A stretch of 64,000 bases of DNA from Candidatus Kuenenia stuttgartensis (lineage in GTDB: Bacteria; Planctomycetota; JAKEIC01; DYIT01). Below the pieces are notes generated by a model that saw only the letters and a program-made list of their open reading frames with translations, was not told where the DNA came from and searched no databases. Location of the stretch: NCBI GenBank assembly GCA_020723505.1, contig DYIT01000001.1, forward strand, positions 74,870-138,869, in the 5' to 3' direction. Positions within the stretch are counted from its first letter, which is position 1, and every line of letters starts with the position of its first letter. Shown one piece after another: positions 17,802 to 27,677 of the stretch. Made by a program: the position numbers and the translations under genes.

Positions 17802-18825
17802 ATGCTCAGAAATCCATATTCATCGATATTTATGTTTGTTTTATGCCTCTTCGTGGGATGCAAAAGGGCTGCTTCTCCATATTTTCGATTATCATGTGAG
17901 CGTGATAGTAAAACATTCACTTCAGGTCCGTATAATCAATCACAGCAGATTCTTAATATTAGACATCCGGATGTTATGGTTAGTATTTATTCATTAGGTG
18001 AGCTTGAATTCCTTTCTCGTCATAATAACATAAACACAAGGGTTGCGGCAATTCGAGCGCTTGGGCTGACGAAAAATAAACTGGGTTATACAACCTATAT
18101 TGATTTGCTTGAAAGATGGCAGTTCACTTGTAAGGTCGGATGCGGCCATGGCGCTTGGAATGGTTGATAAAGAAGAGGTGGTTGATGCATTATTTGAAAC
18201 TCTGAAGGATTATAATTCATTCGTCCGAAGAGATGCGTCTTATGCCTTGCACAGAATTGCGAACAGAGGCATAGTGGTTATATATATATCAAGATTGATT
18301 TTACAAAAACTGAGTATGAATGATGTTAATGACGCAAAGTCAGCGCTTATTATATCTCATGGCAATAGAAGAATATGGTGTGAGTTGAATAGAATAAAAG
18401 ATAACCTAAAAGCATACGCGGGATTGGATGACCTTCTCAAGCAATCAATCATAAGGCAGGATTTCGATGGAATCAAGAAATATATAGATAAAGGAGCAAA
18501 TGTAAATGTCAATTTCAGCCTGTTGAAATGGACTCCTCTTCATTACTGCATTGCTGAATACCGGGGAAGGGGAAGGAAGGAAATACTTATTGAATACTTG
18601 TTGGACCACGGGGCACGTATTAATGAATTGGACAGCCTGAATCAAACTCCATTACATATTGCATTGCGATATCATGAAATATCCTCTGCGGAGAATCTCC
18701 TGAGACGTGGAGCTAGATTCGATATTAAAGACAAGGATAGTAAAACACCCAAAGATATGGCGTATGAAATGAAAAGCAACGCTCCGGATGAAATGAGAGA
18801 AATAATGAATATGATGGGTAAATAA
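17802..18825 (+). pseudogene. AT-rich HEAT-repeat plus ankyrin-repeat lipoprotein, split by a single-base frameshift near 18070-18090
   Basis: Lipobox-like LFVGC; HEAT-PBS motif RVAAIRALG continues in the +1 frame as VIQPILICLKDGSSLVRSDAAMALG; ankyrin WTPLHY, QTPLHIA, KDSKTP. Confidence 0.75.
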
Positions 18826-18859
18826 ATCACTGATTGATTCACATGGAATCCACGAAAGA

Positions 18860-21800
18860 TCATATGCGTATCCGGAGTCTCTGTTCCGTGCGGGACAGCG
18901 CAGGGAGCCATGCAAGCCGGCCGCCGTAATAGTGGCTTACGCTGTCCGAGGGAAACGCGGTTCGGCTGGATGCTCTCGAAAGCAGCGGAGCGCCCGGCCA
19001 GCACCCGCCGCGGCAGACCCTGAACGAGGCGTTCTCGTCGCCGGGCGGATTCAGACAGCCCTCGCGCGCGTTACCCGCCATGCCCCTTGCGCCGAAAGGC
19101 GACTCGTCCACTGGGAAGGAACCCACCGGGCTTGGCCGGATGCCGCCCGCATGCGAGGTCGAATTGTTGCAGAACGTCCCGTCCATGTGGTCGCCCCAGG
19201 GATAGATTCTGGAGTCCACGCCCCTGGCCGCCTTCTCCCACTGGACCTCGTGCGGAAGCATGAAGAGCCTGCCTGATTCCTTGGTGCGCCAGGACGCGTA
19301 TGCCGCGAGATCCTCCCATGAAATCCCGAACACCGGCCAGTCGGGATCCCACCAGACCGGGCTCATCTCCAGCTTCCCCGCCTGCCGCTTCCAATCCTGA
19401 TTCTCCTGATCCCGCTTCCTTGCTTCGCCTGCATACGCCGGCAAGGGCTTCGCAGGGCTGGCCGCGGGAGACTGATTCACCTGATTCGAGGCGGAAACCT
19501 CCAGGATCCACTTCTCCGTGGGGATGTGGAATCGGCCTTCGGAATCCCTCGGCCAGTAGAAGCCGGCAGTCGGAACCTTCCTGGGAACGCGTTTCTCCGC
19601 CCCGGCAGCTGTGTTCAAGAAATGAAGGTACTCGCTGCACGTGACCGGGAACTTCGAGATGAAGAAATCATCAGTCCACCTGTACGCCGCGGGAAGCGAA
19701 TACGGATTGTTCCTGTCCCCCTGGTATGCGAATCCCCCGCCATGCACCTGCACGAATCCACCGGGGATTTCCTCCTCGCGGTACAGCGTGACCGTCAGCC
19801 GCTCCTCCGCAAGCCTGCCGATGTTCACGACCGCGCGAATGGGGGCGTACTCGTGCTCAGTGCAAGGGTGGAGGGTGGAGGTTCGAGGGTCGAGCGAACT
19901 CGCTTCTTCAGGCATTTTGCTTCCACTCTTCCACACGTCATCCTTCACCCTCTCCTTATGCTCCACCCCGGACCCTTTGCCCTTTACCCTGTCTTCCTTG
20001 CCGTATGCGACGACGATTAGGTACGACCCCATTGGAAGCCTGAACTTGGGGATGGGGGTCTTGCCGAGATAGAGGCCGTCGGAGGGCCGGAAGGGCGAGC
20101 CGGTGTCGTACAGGCGGTCGAGAACTTGGGGTGGGAGGGTGGAAGGGTGGAAGGGGGGAAGGGAGGAAGGGGAATCAGGCAATGAAGGCAGTATTGGCAG
20201 AAGAATCCTTCCCCGCTCTTCGAACCTGAAGAGCCACACGTCCGCGCCGGCAAGGGGCTGCGTCTTGCATTCAGTCCCGTGGACCTTGAGGTGCAGCGGC
20301 TCCTCCGGATTGGTCCCGGCCGGCTCTTCCGCGATTTTGCTTTTTGCCGCGCGGCGGGAGCCCATCACTCCGCGGCTGGAAGGGTCCAGGGTCGAGGGGG
20401 GAGGGTTCGGCGAGCAGGAGCCTGCGTCTCCTTCCGCAGCCCGCGTACTCCTACCCTCCCACCCTTCACCCTTCACCCTTTCCCCTGCCAGCTCGTCCGG
20501 AGCGACAAAGCGCCCTTCCGTCAGGCATCGGCAGGGGAAGTGCCTAGTCAAGATTGCCAGCGTCCCGTCCCCCTTGAGGCGCATGTCGAACGATCCGTCG
20601 TTGTATTCCCGGACGAGGTTCTCGCAGAAGAGCATCTCCTTCCTGTTGCCCTTCTCCTCCTCGAAAAGGAACTGCCGCCAGTACATCTCGGCAAGGGCCG
20701 TCCGGGCTTCGGCGTTACCCCTGTCGAATTCGAGCGCCGCCTGCAGCGTTCTTCCTGCCTTCGAATAGACGCGGACCGATTCGTCCGAAAGATTCTGGAA
20801 CCGGGCTTCGATGTCCCACAGCTCCTTCTTGCGCTCGACCGGCCAGTGCTGCCTGACCTCGGCCTGTTTTTCCATGATGCGCAGCTCGAGGTCGTTCAGC
20901 TCTTCCCTGATGCGATCGAGCTCCGCGATGAGCGCCCTGCCTTCAGCTATCTTCTCCGACGCCTTGCCGCGGTCCCGTTCCCGTTCCCTCTCCCCCTCGA
21001 GGAATCTTCCAATCCCCGCATTCAGCTCGCGCACCGACTGGAACCGGTCCTCCTTGCGCCTCGACATGGCCTTGAGCACCATCGCATCGAGCTCTGCAGG
21101 AACCGGATGGGGCGGGAGGTCCTCGGGGGCAGGGTGGAGGGTGGAGGGTGGAGGATTCACCGGGAGGGATTCGATTTCTGCCGCCTGCACCTCATGCGGC
21201 TCGACCCTCGACCCTTCAACCTTCACCCTTTCGGAGTCTGCGCGGGCCTGCCTGATCTCCTCCACGCGCCTCGAAGGCGGAACCAGGCATCCGGAAAGCA
21301 CCTTGTCGATCACGCTCAGGACGCTGCTGCCCTCGAACGGCGCCCTGAGGGTCAGAATCTGGTACAGGATTGCGCCGAGCGAGTAGACGTCGCTGCGCTC
21401 ATCAATCTCCTTGAGCTTGCCGTCCGCCTGCTCGGGCGGCATGTAGGACGGACTGCCCACGATGTCGCTCTCCCACGTCGCGTCCGTGTCGTCCGCGTCC
21501 CATGCTCCGGCAGCCCTTGAGCGCATCCGCGGGGCCTCCATCATCCCCTTCCGGCCTGCAAGGCCCCAGTCGACCACGAACACCTCGCCGTAGTTCCCGA
21601 CCATCACGTTGGAGGGCTTCAGGTCCCTGTGGATGATGCCGTGGTCGTGAGCGAACTCGATTGCGTTGCAGATGCCCTGGAAGATCCCGAGAAGCCTAGG
21701 CATGGTGAACGCGGCGATGGATTCCGCATCCCCGTTCCGGATTGAAAGCAGAATCTGGCCGAGGTTCCTTCCCTCGATTTTCGCCATGGTGAAGTATGGC

Positions 21801-22417
21801 GTGTCCACCCCCTGGTCCTTGAGGATGCCGATGTCGTAGACCGGGACTATGTTGGGGTGGGGCAGCCTGCCTGCTATGCGGCCTTCGGCGAGAAACGGCT
21901 CCGCGTCGCCCCCGGCGTTCTCGGGAAGCATCATCTTCACAGCCACTTCCCTGCCGAAGTCCGTGTCCACGGCCTCGACCACGCGGCTTATGCCTCCCCT
22001 CCCGAGCTCCCCGCGAAACACGTACTTGTCCTTCTGCCCCCGCCTCAGCTTCGTGGTTCCCGCCTTGGATCTCCGCTGGGACTTGCTCCTCGACTTGAGC
22101 TCGGACCTGTCCATGGGTCCGCCCGTCGCGGGCCCGCCGAAGCATGCGAGCACCTCTGATCGGATCGAATCCCCAACGGGAAGGGTGGAAGTCGCGGTTC
22201 CTGCATTGCCGCCGCTCTTCGCGATAATCTCGGCCGACAGGAGCATGAGCGCCTTGAACGCCTGCTTGTTGATGCTCCCCTTCTCGACCAGGATCTCGGC
22301 AAGCGCCCTGCCTGGGGACGACATCAGAACGTCGATGGATCCCCGCAGGTCCTCAATCGATACTAGCCCGAGCTGGCGCCCGAGCATTGCCACGAGCATG
22401 TCGGTCTGGGATGACAT
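18860..22417 (-). CDS. Hanks-type Ser/Thr kinase fused to a C-terminal FGE-sulfatase (SUMF1, C-lectin fold) domain, with in-frame repeat insertions
   Basis: GELGRGG, VAVK, HPNIV, HRDLKPSN, DWGLA, GSPSYMPPE, SDVYSLG; FPVT, QWEKAARG..YPWG, GMAGNARE, RVCRGGCW; likely start MSSQTD at 22417. Confidence 0.92.
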   Translation of the reverse strand: MSSQTDMLVAMLGRQLGLVSIEDLRGSIDVLMSSPGRALAEILVEKGSINKQAFKALMLLSAEIIAKSGGNAGTATSTLPVGDSIRSEVLACFGGPATGGPMDRSELKSRSKSQRRSKAGTTKLRRGQKDKYVFRGELGRGGISRVVEAVDTDFGREVAVKMMLPENAGGDAEPFLAEGRIAGRLPHPNIVPVYDIGILKDQGVDTPYFTMAKIEGRNLGQILLSIRNGDAESIAAFTMPRLLGIFQGICNAIEFAHDHGIIHRDLKPSNVMVGNYGEVFVVDWGLAGRKGMMEAPRMRSRAAGAWDADDTDATWESDIVGSPSYMPPEQADGKLKEIDERSDVYSLGAILYQILTLRAPFEGSSVLSVIDKVLSGCLVPPSRRVEEIRQARADSERVKVEGSRVEPHEVQAAEIESLPVNPPPSTLHPAPEDLPPHPVPAELDAMVLKAMSRRKEDRFQSVRELNAGIGRFLEGERERERDRGKASEKIAEGRALIAELDRIREELNDLELRIMEKQAEVRQHWPVERKKELWDIEARFQNLSDESVRVYSKAGRTLQAALEFDRGNAEARTALAEMYWRQFLFEEEKGNRKEMLFCENLVREYNDGSFDMRLKGDGTLAILTRHFPCRCLTEGRFVAPDELAGERVKGEGWEGRSTRAAEGDAGSCSPNPPPSTLDPSSRGVMGSRRAAKSKIAEEPAGTNPEEPLHLKVHGTECKTQPLAGADVWLFRFEERGRILLPILPSLPDSPSSLPPFHPSTLPPQVLDRLYDTGSPFRPSDGLYLGKTPIPKFRLPMGSYLIVVAYGKEDRVKGKGSGVEHKERVKDDVWKSGSKMPEEASSLDPRTSTLHPCTEHEYAPIRAVVNIGRLAEERLTVTLYREEEIPGGFVQVHGGGFAYQGDRNNPYSLPAAYRWTDDFFISKFPVTCSEYLHFLNTAAGAEKRVPRKVPTAGFYWPRDSEGRFHIPTEKWILEVSASNQVNQSPAASPAKPLPAYAGEARKRDQENQDWKRQAGKLEMSPVWWDPDWPVFGISWEDLAAYASWRTKESGRLFMLPHEVQWEKAARGVDSRIYPWGDHMDGTFCNNSTSHAGGIRPSPVGSFPVDESPFGARGMAGNAREGCLNPPGDENASFRVCRGGCWPGAPLLSRASSRTAFPSDSVSHYYGGRLAWLPALSRTEQRLRIRI

Positions 22418-22593
22418 CGGGTGGATTATAACAGGCTGGAACAGCCTCTGCATAACCCGGACGAACCGGAACCCATCGCTGAAAAGCCATGCGCGGGGCG
22501 GGTCGGGCCGGCAACCGGCAGGGGAGTCGTGGGGTCTGGGAAGGACTTGCGAGACGGAACTGCCGCGCTTCCCGGTTGCGGTTGTCATGTCGT

Positions 22594-22633
22594 ATCCCAC
22601 ACGAAGCTTGTTGCTTCCCGCTTCGTGTGGGAT
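22594..22633. repeat. 40-bp palindromic element (CCACACGAAGC family), copy 2
   Basis: atcccacacgaagc...gcttcgtgtgggat. Confidence 0.8.
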
Positions 22634-23065
22634 TCGTGTACGTGTACGAAAATGTAGACGGGAACGGCAATACCCCTCACCCTTACCCTCTCCCCAAGGG
22701 CTGGTCTTTACCCACAAGTATCAAGTTTGATGCGGGTTTTATGCAACATCAGGCTGCAGCCGCCTCACGTGTCGAAGACCCGCCGAGCCCACGACCATCT
22801 GTTTAGGCGAAGGCGGGTCGGGGCGAAGATCACGGCAGCTGAGTGCCGTTGCCGCAGCAGGGTGCCCCGGCTCAAGCGATGTCGCTCATCGCAATCCCGC
22901 TCATCCCCGTGACTCCGAGGCTGCGCGAGATAGAATAGGCAGCGAAGCGTATGCGGCATGCAGGGGCCGATGATGATTTCAGAACGCGCCGAAGGAATGC
23001 ATCCGGAACACGACCCGGGCAATCCCGGACCCGGGAGGGATTCGGTTTCAGGCCCGTCCCGGTCC

Positions 23066-26015: not shown

Positions 26016-27293
26016 CTATTTCCCCTGCTGTCTTTCCCATGAGCAGCCGTCGCCCTTGCACGAGGGGCATTTGCCCTTGTTGTCCTTGCAGGCCGGGCAG
26101 TCGGCGTCGCCCTTCTTGCCAGTGCCGCCGCAGACGGCGCATGAGCATGAGCCCTTGCAGGCCCAGCAGCCGTAGCCGCGGTCGTCGATCTTCCACGTGC
26201 CGTCGGCCTGTTTCGCGAGCTTGAAGAACCTGCTGTCCGTGCGCTCCTTGCCTGTGCGGTCAATCCGGGTCTCGGCGCAGCACACGATTGCCGAATCGCC
26301 CTCGGCTTTCACTTCCTTCACGTCCTGCTTCAGGCCGTCCTTCTCCTTTATATATCTCGCGCTTCCCTCCTTGACGGCCTTGTCCAGCGTCTCAGCCGTG
26401 GCCTTGACGAAGTAGGAGCTCACCATCTTCTTCACGAGCGCAGTCAGCTCCCTGGCAGCGGCCGTGTTCCTCAAGTCGCGCTGCTCCTTGATGCTCAGGA
26501 AGGTCTTCACCGTGTTCGCAGAAGCCGTCAGATCGGAGTATGCGTCGGCTTTGCGGTCGACCTCGAGGAGGAATCCGCCGGCTTCGAACTCGTCCTGGCG
26601 CTTCCATCCCTCGCCCTTGCAGGTCATGCACTTGCCCTGCGTCTTCTTGCACTGCCAGCAGTCTTCCGGCTGCTTCTTGCCCGTGCCTCCGCAGGCCCCG
26701 CATTCGGTCTCGCCCGTCTTGCCCGTTCCCTTGCATCCGGGGCAGTCCTTCGCGGCGGTCTTCCCCGTGCCGCCGCAGTTCTCGCACTTGCCCGTACCGT
26801 TGCAGGAGCGGCAGCTCAGGAACCACTTCTGGATTCTCCACTCGCCGCCTTCGTTCGCGAAAACGCACCTGTGCCTGCGCGTCTCCTCGACCTGCTTCGT
26901 CACGGGCTCGCCGCCCTTATCCACGTCCTTCTTCGTCCTCGTCACCGCTTGGGTCCCGTAGATGACGACCGTCCCGCCCTCGCTGGCCTCCTCCTTCTCG
27001 AAGCTTATCTTCCCCTCCTTGTCCAGGTCGCGGGCGAAATCGAACTTCTTGTCCCTCTCCTTCAGGAAATCGACGTAGGACTGAGTGAAGACCACGGCGT
27101 ACACGTCCGAGTCCCTCGCGCTGAGGAGGCCCTTGAGCTTCTCGTCGACCCGGCTCTTCATGTCGAAGGCGCCGGCCGCGAAGCTCTCGAACGCGGCTTT
27201 GGCGGACGACAGGTCCGCCTTGGGGGTATCCTGGCCCAGTGTCGCGCCCGACGCGACCGCCAGGAAGATGCAAATCAGCATGAAACGCTTCAT
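26016..27293 (-). CDS. Exported protein with two modules, each followed by DnaJ-type CxxCxGxG zinc-finger repeats
   Basis: Signal peptide MKRFMLICIFLAVASGATLG; 6+4 CxxC(xGxG) motifs; modules end in GEWRI / GTWKI. Confidence 0.8.
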   Translation of the reverse strand: MKRFMLICIFLAVASGATLGQDTPKADLSSAKAAFESFAAGAFDMKSRVDEKLKGLLSARDSDVYAVVFTQSYVDFLKERDKKFDFARDLDKEGKISFEKEEASEGGTVVIYGTQAVTRTKKDVDKGGEPVTKQVEETRRHRCVFANEGGEWRIQKWFLSCRSCNGTGKCENCGGTGKTAAKDCPGCKGTGKTGETECGACGGTGKKQPEDCWQCKKTQGKCMTCKGEGWKRQDEFEAGGFLLEVDRKADAYSDLTASANTVKTFLSIKEQRDLRNTAAARELTALVKKMVSSYFVKATAETLDKAVKEGSARYIKEKDGLKQDVKEVKAEGDSAIVCCAETRIDRTGKERTDSRFFKLAKQADGTWKIDDRGYGCWACKGSCSCAVCGGTGKKGDADCPACKDNKGKCPSCKGDGCSWERQQGK

Positions 27294-27392
27294 CGGAATT
27301 CCTCCAGAAATCGGAAAACAGGGGGATGTTACGCTTTTCGCCGGGCGAATCAATATGCCGCATGACACGGACAATCCGGGACTGGTTCCATT

Positions 27393-27433
27393 GAAGGGTG
27401 GAGGGTACAGGGTTGAGGGTGGAGGGGGTTCGG
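27393..27433. repeat. Intergenic heptamer repeat (AGGGTGG family)
   Basis: gaagggtggagggtacagggttgagggtggagggggttcgg; same family as the kinase inserts. Confidence 0.8.
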
Positions 27434-27677
27434 TTAACCGTCAACCGTCAGCCGCAGACTGTACCCTGTAGTCGCATAAAAAAGCGCACCGATTCATGAA
27501 ACACTCGATGAATAGCAATGCAGAATCGCGAGAAACCGCACTTGCGGAAAGAACCGCCAACCTCACATAAAGTGAAGTTGAGGGATAAAGAAAACCAGAA
27601 CTTCCGGAGCACTAAGAAAGAGGGACGCGAGGACTAGGATTAACCACCGGACACGCCGAGGAAACCGGGGAAAAGGA

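Follow-up and report, generated by a model that had tools for sequence, protein, structure and literature searches.

Tandem-armed hairpin inserts kept in frame in a planctomycete kinase-FGE gene family: probable miniature relatives of intervening sequences

The DNA considered here is a 64,000-nt stretch (the window) of contig DYIT01000001.1 of Candidatus Kuenenia stuttgartensis (assembly GCA_020723505.1, positions 74,870 to 138,869), and its subject is a gene coding for a Ser/Thr kinase joined to an FGE-sulfatase domain, which is interrupted in frame by inserts built of short tandem arrays of 7- or 8-nt units. We consider it probable (at roughly 0.6) that these inserts are miniature, translated derivatives, lacking an open reading frame (ORF) of their own, of selfish hairpin elements akin to the intervening sequences (IVSs) of 23S rRNA genes, tolerated in surface loops of the host protein. 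The inserts are absent from outgroup homologues, belong to a set that recurs at eight sites of one expanded gene family and is in part shared between non-homologous sites, and have long relatives in which arms enclose a gene. A first-pass annotation of this DNA had noticed the inserts and had read them as an invading repeat comparable to the Rickettsia palindromic elements (RPEs); the observation itself is confirmed, and the interpretation is partly supported. All the evidence comes from metagenome assemblies, and in every count given below the copies are kin and not independent.

The ORF occupies 18860..22717 on the minus strand, and its 1285 codons stay open throughout the inserts, as had been claimed. 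Its Pfam domains are Pkinase (residues 233-471) and FGE-sulfatase (residues 988-1269), and alignments with homologues indicate that its true start is likely to be M101, at about window position 22417. Three main types of filling are distinguished in this gene and its relatives: G-type (AGGGT/ACCCT), T-type (AGTGT/ACACT) and E-type (8-mers of the CTGATTCN/ATCAG type, which read as DSPD or NQVNQ). The gene and its inserts are as follows.

18860..22417, minus strand: host gene, with Ser/Thr kinase, coiled-coil, beta-rich middle region and FGE-sulfatase domain
21104..21256, minus strand: insert A (residues 488-538), in the C-lobe of the kinase, flanked by the PPSRR segment and by the helix VPAELDAMVLKA
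20369..20482, minus strand: insert B (residues 746-783), a G-type hairpin of 4+4 units with a 43-nt spacer
20128..20174, minus strand: remnant at site C, a single arm, C-rich on the coding strand, with an 8-nt period, read as SLPPFHPSTLPP
19859..20005, minus strand: insert D (residues 905-953), G-type, within the motif LIVVAYGKE / YAPIR
19397..19495, minus strand: insert F2 (residues 1075-1107), in the FGE domain, half of an 8-mer (E-type) element

Read on either strand, A, B and D have the form (NNAGGGT)n, spacer, (ACCCTNN)n, and all three lie where inverted-arm elements had been annotated, D with one degraded arm. The core of A is a G-type hairpin element at 21131-21230, with three AGGGTGG units in one arm and four ACCCT-type units in the other; the arms of B span 20380-20482 and its peptide is GERVKGEGWEG...NPPPSTLDP; those of D span 19864-19993, the right arm in window orientation (the left one on the coding strand) being the degraded one, and the insert reads RVKGKGSGVE...LDPRTSTLHP. 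The single-armed 8-mer run at site C is real, with a spacing of 8, and its partner arm appears to have been lost, since the orthologue in genome G001 and other paralogues keep both arms there. F2 had been described as a 9-mer insertion at about 19395-19490; an insert is present at 19397-19495, but its units are 8-mers of the CTGATTCN family, and its two ATCAG-type arm copies, placed around ~60 nt, are direct and not inverted. The F2 peptide reads NQVNQ...DQENQ, its arm type is that of the right arm of a long element carrying a GxxExxY gene (described below), and its site is filled in just 3 of the 39 family members that span it.

When the coding-strand RNA of each insert was folded and compared with 200 shuffles, B gave a strong hairpin (-65.2 kcal/mol, z -4.5, equalled by 0/200 shuffles), A folded at -45.9 kcal/mol (z -2.3, with 4/200 shuffles equal or better) and D, which is decayed, at -44.7 kcal/mol (z -1.2, 25/200 shuffles), against z values between -1.9 and +0.06 for four neighbouring coding controls. 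The single arm at site C gives no fold, and F2 has a z of -0.1. By sequence the G-type arms match the G3N4 x4 quadruplex motif, but a G-quadruplex as a property common to all arms is ruled out by the T-type and E-type arms, which have no G-runs.

Six outgroup homologues of ~1000-1050 aa, from Planctomycetota metagenome-assembled genomes (MAGs) and from genome G017, share the architecture of kinase, coiled coil, middle region and FGE domain; they were found by an alignment-based scan, a scan with the single protein having given no relative. A, B and D are absent from all six, F2 is absent from all five that cover its site, and at site A the outgroups have 0-20 unrelated residues. The alignment with M. 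tuberculosis PknB is likewise broken between PPSRRVEE (chain residue 242) and VPAELDAMVLKA (residue 243), so that A amounts to 51 extra residues at one point. In an AlphaFold model of residues 690-1000, built on a 16-sequence alignment (mean predicted local distance difference test score, pLDDT, 68; predicted template modelling score, pTM, 0.62), pLDDT falls below 50 in insert B (model residues 62-82) and in insert D (224-263), and the strands flanking both inserts score 80-94. The inserts are clean in-frame indels at loops, and B and D are predicted to be disordered; the expectation that comparison with homologues would reveal clean indels in surface loops has thus been borne out.

The window gene belongs to a large family, with more than 200 tblastn matches in G000 (the genome holding the window), where the regions specific to the family, coiled-coil or middle, identified 27 genes or fragments. 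They were aligned with relatives from the other genomes compared (six from G001, eight from G003, one each from G017 and G032), giving 43 members, among which fragmentary ones may score as empty where they are poorly aligned. Eight recurrent insertion sites were recognized. S2 separates the aD and aE regions of the kinase, S3 lies within its activation segment, F1 and F2 fall in the FGE domain, and the other four are A, B, C and D. At every site, many members are empty and others carry an insert. Inserts of at least 15 aa number 100, of which 62 are in G000 (24/27 members), 19 in G001 (6/6) and 19 in G003 (8/8), and the single members from G017 and G032 have none. The fillings are of the G, T and E types, with further ones made of AAGCGGT/CTCACCG or GGGGCAC/GTGCCCC units and other palindromes in G003, and for 85/100 inserts the folding energy is -30 kcal/mol or lower. 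None of the 100 disrupts the host frame. Just 22/100 elements are open in all three frames, as compared with 27% of random coding segments, which rules out a 'frame-proof' element design and argues that the frame is kept by selection on the host gene.

The fillings turn over within the family. G and T types both occur at sites S2, A, B and D, and in a quick FastTree tree of 813 core columns (arbitrarily rooted) the sister genes C124 and C199 differ in having G versus E at S2 and G versus T at B; between the window gene and its orthologue in G001 the contrast is likewise G versus T, at both B and D. The two arms of one element agree in type: among 32 elements with at least two cores per half, 15 are G/G, 15 T/T, one is mixed and one tied. 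Near-identical copies, spacer included, occur at different sites, namely at B of C148 and C of C124 (87% over 87 nt), at S2 and S3 within C195 (87% over 84 nt) and, between genomes, at A of a G001 gene and B of a G003 gene (82.5% over 80 nt). Since whole elements are common to non-homologous sites, copying between sites has occurred. Peptides at one site diverge, as in RVKGEGWEG versus SAKCGVSSVEK, and in the G-type group at site B identity is 87% in the arms, 59% in the spacers and 70% in the flanking coding DNA.

Within G000 the intragenic elements are nearly confined to this one expanded kinase-FGE family. Gene positions were taken from a crude ORF-based caller made for this analysis, whose models account for 85% of the genome. 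Of 66 AGGGT/ACCCT arms with at least three cores, 42 lie in kinase-family genes and one at the edge of such a gene, 21 are intergenic, and two lie in or at the edge of other ORFs. Among all 112 intragenic period-7 arrays, 66 fall in genes of the family, whose share is 138,234 of 4,219,239 coding bases (3.3%; binomial tail 1.5e-67, the copies being kin), eight in other kinases and 38 elsewhere, many of the latter at doubtful ORF starts. Arrays with an inverted partner (16 or more of 18 matching within 150 nt) number 18/62 in family genes, 2/8 in other kinases, 0/38 in other genes and 16/278 between genes. The idea of a repeat element invading genes therefore holds as far as a genome-wide heptamer vocabulary and copying between sites are concerned, but the invasion is limited to nearly one family and about eight recurrent sites. 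The Rickettsia analogy fares in a similar way: as in RPEs, palindromic sequences are inserted in frame and cleanly relative to homologues, but they are not spread over many unrelated genes and do not encode a conserved consensus peptide, the spacers being unrelated.

Long forms with cargo genes were found at the same sites, with arms of 33-40 nt placed 380-421 nt apart. At site B of C56, a paralogue in G000, two G-type arms (33 nt, 85% complementary, separated by 380 nt) enclose a complete 123-codon gene for a four-helix-bundle protein (TIGR02436, 109.7 bits; PF05635, the '23S rRNA-intervening sequence protein' family, 117 bits), and the kinase frame remains open across this gene, which lies in another frame, as an insert of ~150 aa. 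At site C of a G001 paralogue, GGGGCAC/GTGCCCC arms of 33 nt (88% complementary, 421 nt apart) surround a PF05635 ORF with one TGA, matched in two pieces (69.5 + 35.1 bits). At site S3 of a G003 paralogue, E-type arms surround an in-frame GxxExxY ORF (TIGR04256, 131 bits; PF13366, E 2.5e-38). This last locus (L039:3350-3841, contig C15 of G003) has a complete GxxExxY domain of the PD-(D/E)xK fold in frame in the activation segment, as a 156-aa insert; if translated, the product would be a kinase whose activation loop contains a nuclease-fold domain.

The two ends of the 492-nt GxxExxY element (positions 1-36 or 1-93, and ~445-484) are matched by the short E-type elements of G000 and G001, which are internal-deletion derivatives of it. 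E-type elements thus have what is expected of a MITE (miniature inverted-repeat transposable element), that is, terminal inverted repeats and a longer parent sharing the ends, and for the G-type the arms are shared with C56. The cargo genes are no known transposases.

Flanking arrays are common around PF05635 genes in the Planctomycetota genomes sampled. G000 has four PF05635 genes, three of them flanked by inverted arrays (of AGGGT, AGAAGTTA and GACCGTG units) that match at 15-16 of 16 positions, and the fourth with a flank match of 11. PF05635 matches occur in 19/31 related genomes, up to 52 in each and many with stop codons. Of 30 such loci from the 19 genomes, 16 have an inverted match of at least 14 of 16 between their 170-nt flanks, 16 a 7/8-nt array on one side or both (on both in seven), against 0/22 on all three measures in control windows displaced by 800 nt (Fisher p 2.8e-5). 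The repeat unit differs from copy to copy (TTCAGTT, GGAGTCTT, GTAGGTTT, GGGAAGTT and others).

Several side observations concern these genes. One locus (L144, G006:C99:1-1937) has 13 TTCAGTT copies before the PF05635 gene and AACTGAA-type units after it, and its unit resembles the TAACTGA heptamer of Beggiatoaceae, Cyanobacteria and Bacteroidetes, as given in the accessible part of PMC4679880. In G011, a complete 9.3-Mb genome of the same phylum, many of the 52 PF05635 matches contain exactly one TGA, or a TGA and a TAG, and the set looks like a decaying multi-copy family or a case of recurrent in-frame TGA. PF05635 matches in 'open frames' of 403-1360 aa in G002 were rejected as embedded copies, these being spurious high-GC frames with the small gene at the end.

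Tandem heptamers are abundant in G000 as a whole and, like those of the short tandemly repeated repetitive (STRR) type, mainly intergenic: Tandem Repeats Finder (TRF) reports 1010 arrays of period 7, as compared with 123 of period 5 and 403 of period 8, and of the 403 period-7 arrays with at least three copies 271 are intergenic, 20 touch a gene edge and 112 are intragenic. The pattern AGGGTNN x4 occurs 34 times in G000, against two for a reversed-pattern control, and in 13/301 sampled genomes of the phylum, two of which have 41 and 27 copies; it is found once in G001 and in neither G002 nor G003. Intergenic AGGGT arms are single and lie inside composite heptamer arrays, whose order recurs as (AAGGTCN)n, (AGGGTNN)n and (AACCGTA/AGCAGTA)n. 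One of these is in the window:

27395..27454, plus strand: intergenic composite array, with four AGGGTNN units (27395-27420) followed by AACCGTC heptamers

It starts 21 nt 5' of the start of a minus-strand ORF (26019-27374, a crude gene model). The same heptamer family had been annotated at 27393-27433, and four units of it are indeed present, as a single arm and not as an inverted repeat. The notion of intergenic copies as inverted-repeat elements does not hold in G000, where AGGGT copies between genes are single-armed and the 16 inverted-paired period-7 arrays among the 278 intergenic ones include no AGGGT type; no intergenic source copy for the G-type elements was found in that genome. Further composite arrays occur at C75:33398 and C168:16340 of G000, and some of them include a small REP-like (repetitive extragenic palindromic) hairpin, GGCGAAGTCCCTCGACTCCGCTCGGGACATTCGCC, in three copies.

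The known element that these inserts resemble most closely in their parts is the IVS. According to the accessible text of PMC4990558, the IVS in the 23S rRNA gene of Coxiella is a 428-nt selfish element with an S23p ORF, variable numbers of tandem heptameric repeats lie just upstream of that ORF, and RNase III cuts the IVS out at the first heptamer repeat; an old hypothesis regards IVSs as mobile elements, and their origin, their mobility and the function of the S23p ORF have been unsettled for decades. Like an IVS, the elements described here are putatively selfish inserts of up to a few hundred nt whose complementary ends pair into a long stem around a variable centre; a PF05635 ORF may sit in the loop, with heptamer repeats in varying number beside it, and decay of the ORF and ORF-less forms also occur. 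The long forms with PF05635 or PF13366 genes tie the elements to the 23S rRNA IVS and not only to RPEs. Unlike IVSs, which lie in helix 25 or 45 of 23S rRNA, they have a protein-coding host whose frame is kept open, their arms consist wholly of tandem 7-8-mers, they have a second cargo (GxxExxY), and many copies reside in one paralogue family. The single 23S gene of G000 (C108:16122-19178), which spans 3057 nt as compared with a 2925-position model, has no period-7/8 array and no inverted repeat of at least 11 nt within 400 nt. The genome has one RNase III gene, which makes IVS-like processing of the family mRNAs possible by analogy.

Other repeat classes share part of this anatomy. RPEs are also short palindromic repeats in frame, with a peptide compatible with the protein fold (PMC10969869 and PMC3733652, in their accessible parts); they reside in many unrelated genes and their families encode a conserved peptide, whereas here nearly all copies are in one family at recurrent sites and have short-unit tandem arms, a free centre and long forms with genes. 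REPs and their inverted doublets (REPINs) form hairpins, are mostly intergenic and lie in some cases inside ORFs, and one reported case concerns different REPs at about the same site in recB of two Xanthomonas species (both from the available portion of PMC3733652). Unlike them, the elements described here have arms that are tandem arrays and not a single palindrome, and they are not associated with a REP-associated tyrosine transposase (RAYT): none of the nine Y1_Tnp (PF01797) matches in G000 adjoins an array, one having a 2.6-copy array within 600 nt, and a REPIN/RAYT identity is rejected. The IS200-like Y1_Tnp matches lie in frames of ~300-365 aa, longer than the 121-position Pfam model (C18:492, C66:30855, C161:6155, C36:3710 and C29:34449, the last of these directly after a kinase gene).

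STRR-type heptamers are similarly abundant and mostly intergenic, as GGGNATC in Xanthomonas and Nostoc (PMC4692102) and TAACTGA in Beggiatoaceae (PMC4679880), and like the IVSs they are unexplained; a few of the arrays lie within ORFs (PMC4679880), and G-rich heptamers prefer four units (PMC4692102), a number of cores seen here in 34 of the 66 AGGGT/ACCCT arms. They are direct arrays with proposed regulatory roles, and inverted pairing, cargo and in-frame residence in a gene family are not described in the available portions of these two reports; unlike G-rich heptamers, the T-type arms have no G-runs. A literature search of titles and abstracts, in a collection without most subscription journals, found neither IVS-type or PF05635/GxxExxY hairpin elements in protein genes nor a general link of PF05635/GxxExxY genes to inverted tandem arrays.

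Each arm is a short tandem array of 7-8-nt units placed around a variable centre, and full-length elements of ~450-490 nt carry a PF05635 or PF13366 gene between the same arms; on the reading that we favour, the ~100-nt copies of the window gene would be miniature forms without an ORF. They would occupy a few permissive surface loops of a kinase-FGE family that expanded in this order-level lineage, be inherited with the paralogues, and also pass between sites and paralogues by copying or replacement, recombination primed on the common arms being the simplest route. The ribosome would read through them as disordered loops rich in Gly, Pro and Ser, and only insertions that keep the host frame would survive. 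We infer the selfish and tolerated status of the elements, their neutrality and the mechanism of copying; a regulatory or diversifying role may exist.

Several points weigh against this reading. The short G-type spacers, those of the window included, match the C56 element in the arms only, and a derivation of these spacers from the C56 ORF was rejected for lack of any similarity beyond the arms, so that internal deletion is shown for the E-type alone. Neither PF13366 in G000 nor a transposase or other mobilising enzyme linked to the elements was found, and no target-site duplications were resolved, filled and empty sites being too diverged to read. Arms are at least as conserved as flanking coding DNA in one group and not in the others, which are less clear (61-71% in the arms against 68% in the flanks). 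Translation of the inserts is deduced from frame conservation, and the filling of the same sites in three genomes would also fit an ancient insertion followed by evolution in place.

The hairpins could instead be functional RNA modules, cut by RNase III or stalling the ribosome, that would give shared control of the ~27 kinases or split their messages at domain borders. Such a role would suit the 85 of 100 elements folding at -30 kcal/mol or lower, the matching arm types in 30 of 32 elements, the spacers that are less alike than the arms in three of four groups (49-59% versus 61-87%), and the presence of one RNase III gene in a genome whose elements recall the RNase III-cut Coxiella IVS (PMC4990558, in its accessible part). 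The stems are, however, unevenly kept, D being decayed and site C single-armed, many paralogues are empty at each site, the frame conserved through every insert favours intact translated messages, and matching of arms could also arise by template switching or conversion without selection. We regard this explanation as rather unlikely.

An improbable alternative makes the elements a diversification device, whose common arms would recombine and swap loop cassettes, possibly domains, altering the activation, aG-aH and sensor-side loops. Elements have been exchanged between sites and paralogues, sister genes have different types at one site, the activation segment (S3) is among the sites and holds the whole 156-aa insert of the G003 gene, and many family contigs end in arms, all of which would be expected of such a device; but the peptides are dictated by the nucleotide repeat and show no conservation at the protein level (RVKGEGWEG versus SAKCGVSSVEK), the inserts are predicted to be disordered, and no domain shuffling was found, no search aimed at it having been made.

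It is less probable still, and already disfavoured, that nothing has moved and that the inserts are ancestral low-complexity linkers evolving in place by replication slippage and hairpin-templated correction. The same sites are filled in three genomes of one order, the left boundaries of site D are alike across genomes (YRKxGS...), and orthologue pairs across genomes share occupancy at several sites, as linkers of this kind would; yet the outgroups, G017 and G032 are empty at all sites, sister genes have unrelated arm families at S2 (AGGGT heptamers versus CTGATTC octamers), near-identical elements, spacer included, lie at non-homologous sites, and the long forms contain complete foreign genes.

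That the elements are parts of a diversity-generating retroelement (DGR) is very improbable: PF05635 is Avd-like and the commonest Pfam family near DGR reverse transcriptases (accessible text of PMC10053308), the host protein has an FGE domain, whose C-type-lectin fold is a common DGR target, and the cargo ORF falls in the same four-helix-bundle superfamily as Avd, but no RVT_1 match exists anywhere in the 89%-complete G000, the C56 ORF scores 27.8 bits against DivGenRetAVD, far under the curated cut-off of 80, and the elements lie in kinase and middle-region loops and not at the C-terminal end of the FGE domain.

There is equally little to suggest an artefact of assembling a repeat-rich metagenome bin. 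G000, probably a member of Planctomycetota by its best-matching records, is a MAG of 4.95 Mb in 207 contigs (61.5% G+C, 89% complete, 4.4% contamination) whose contig ends often fall in element arms, and Logan contigs from the probable source run, at a coverage of only ~8x, break at 20446-20479. They nevertheless cover 18800-20446 with no differences and 20479-22592 with two, reproducing A, C, D and F2 without differences, and a 92-nt contig bridges the right arm of B, the sole break, by overlaps; the misassembly that the first-pass annotation had allowed for is thus not seen, in an assembly that comes from the same sample as the MAG and so is not independent of it. The independent MAGs G001 and G003 have elements at the same sites inside long contigs, and the frame is kept through all 100 inserts. 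Three DNA runs of one study were compared, two of which contain almost nothing of the stretch, and Logan joints whose sides measure 20-27 nt most likely stem from arms of paralogues.

Upstream of M101 the ORF continues through a leader that contains a short G-family array and a separate dispersed repeat with ~50 copies in the genome:

22672-22693, minus strand: short G-family array in the leader, 5' of M101, with ACCCT cores at 22672, 22679 and 22685

The array appears as 'GEGKGEG' in the spurious 5' extension of the ORF. The dispersed repeat, at 22470-22700, has 53 blastn matches in the genome (the best non-self one ~90% over 150-200 nt), a Logan contig depth of 220-447 as compared with ~8 elsewhere, and a 17-nt inverted pair at 22591-22636; its presence marks the annotated TTG start at 22717 as spurious. 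The coiled-coil and beta-rich middle region (residues 540-990, 19748-21098) has no Pfam match. A Foldseek search of the middle-region model against the PDB gave nothing at E <=0.001 (best E 0.29), and a protein atlas look-up of residues 540-990 gave a single unnamed match at 0.86. Its PMGSYLLIxA...YAPVRVPV motif recalls PEGA-type domains.

A wider view can be put forward tentatively, as a doubtful generalization: hairpin elements with tandem-repeat arms and S23p/Avd-like or GxxExxY genes might form a widespread, undescribed mobile class, of which the 23S IVS would be a special case and the heptamer arrays of several phyla the footprints; in this lineage the class would have settled in coding sequences of a kinase family, where the stems in the mRNAs might be processed or sensed as a shared control. 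Whatever its scope, the locus suggests a testable link between two puzzles, the IVS with its S23p ORF and the bacterial heptamer repeats. In protein genes, frame conservation, presence or absence among paralogues and copying between sites can be read directly, and the filled and empty natural alleles would allow one to ask what the hairpins do to the mRNA and to the kinase. For annotation the family is a warning, since 43 genes contain 100 in-frame inserts, among which whole foreign ORFs are read in another frame.

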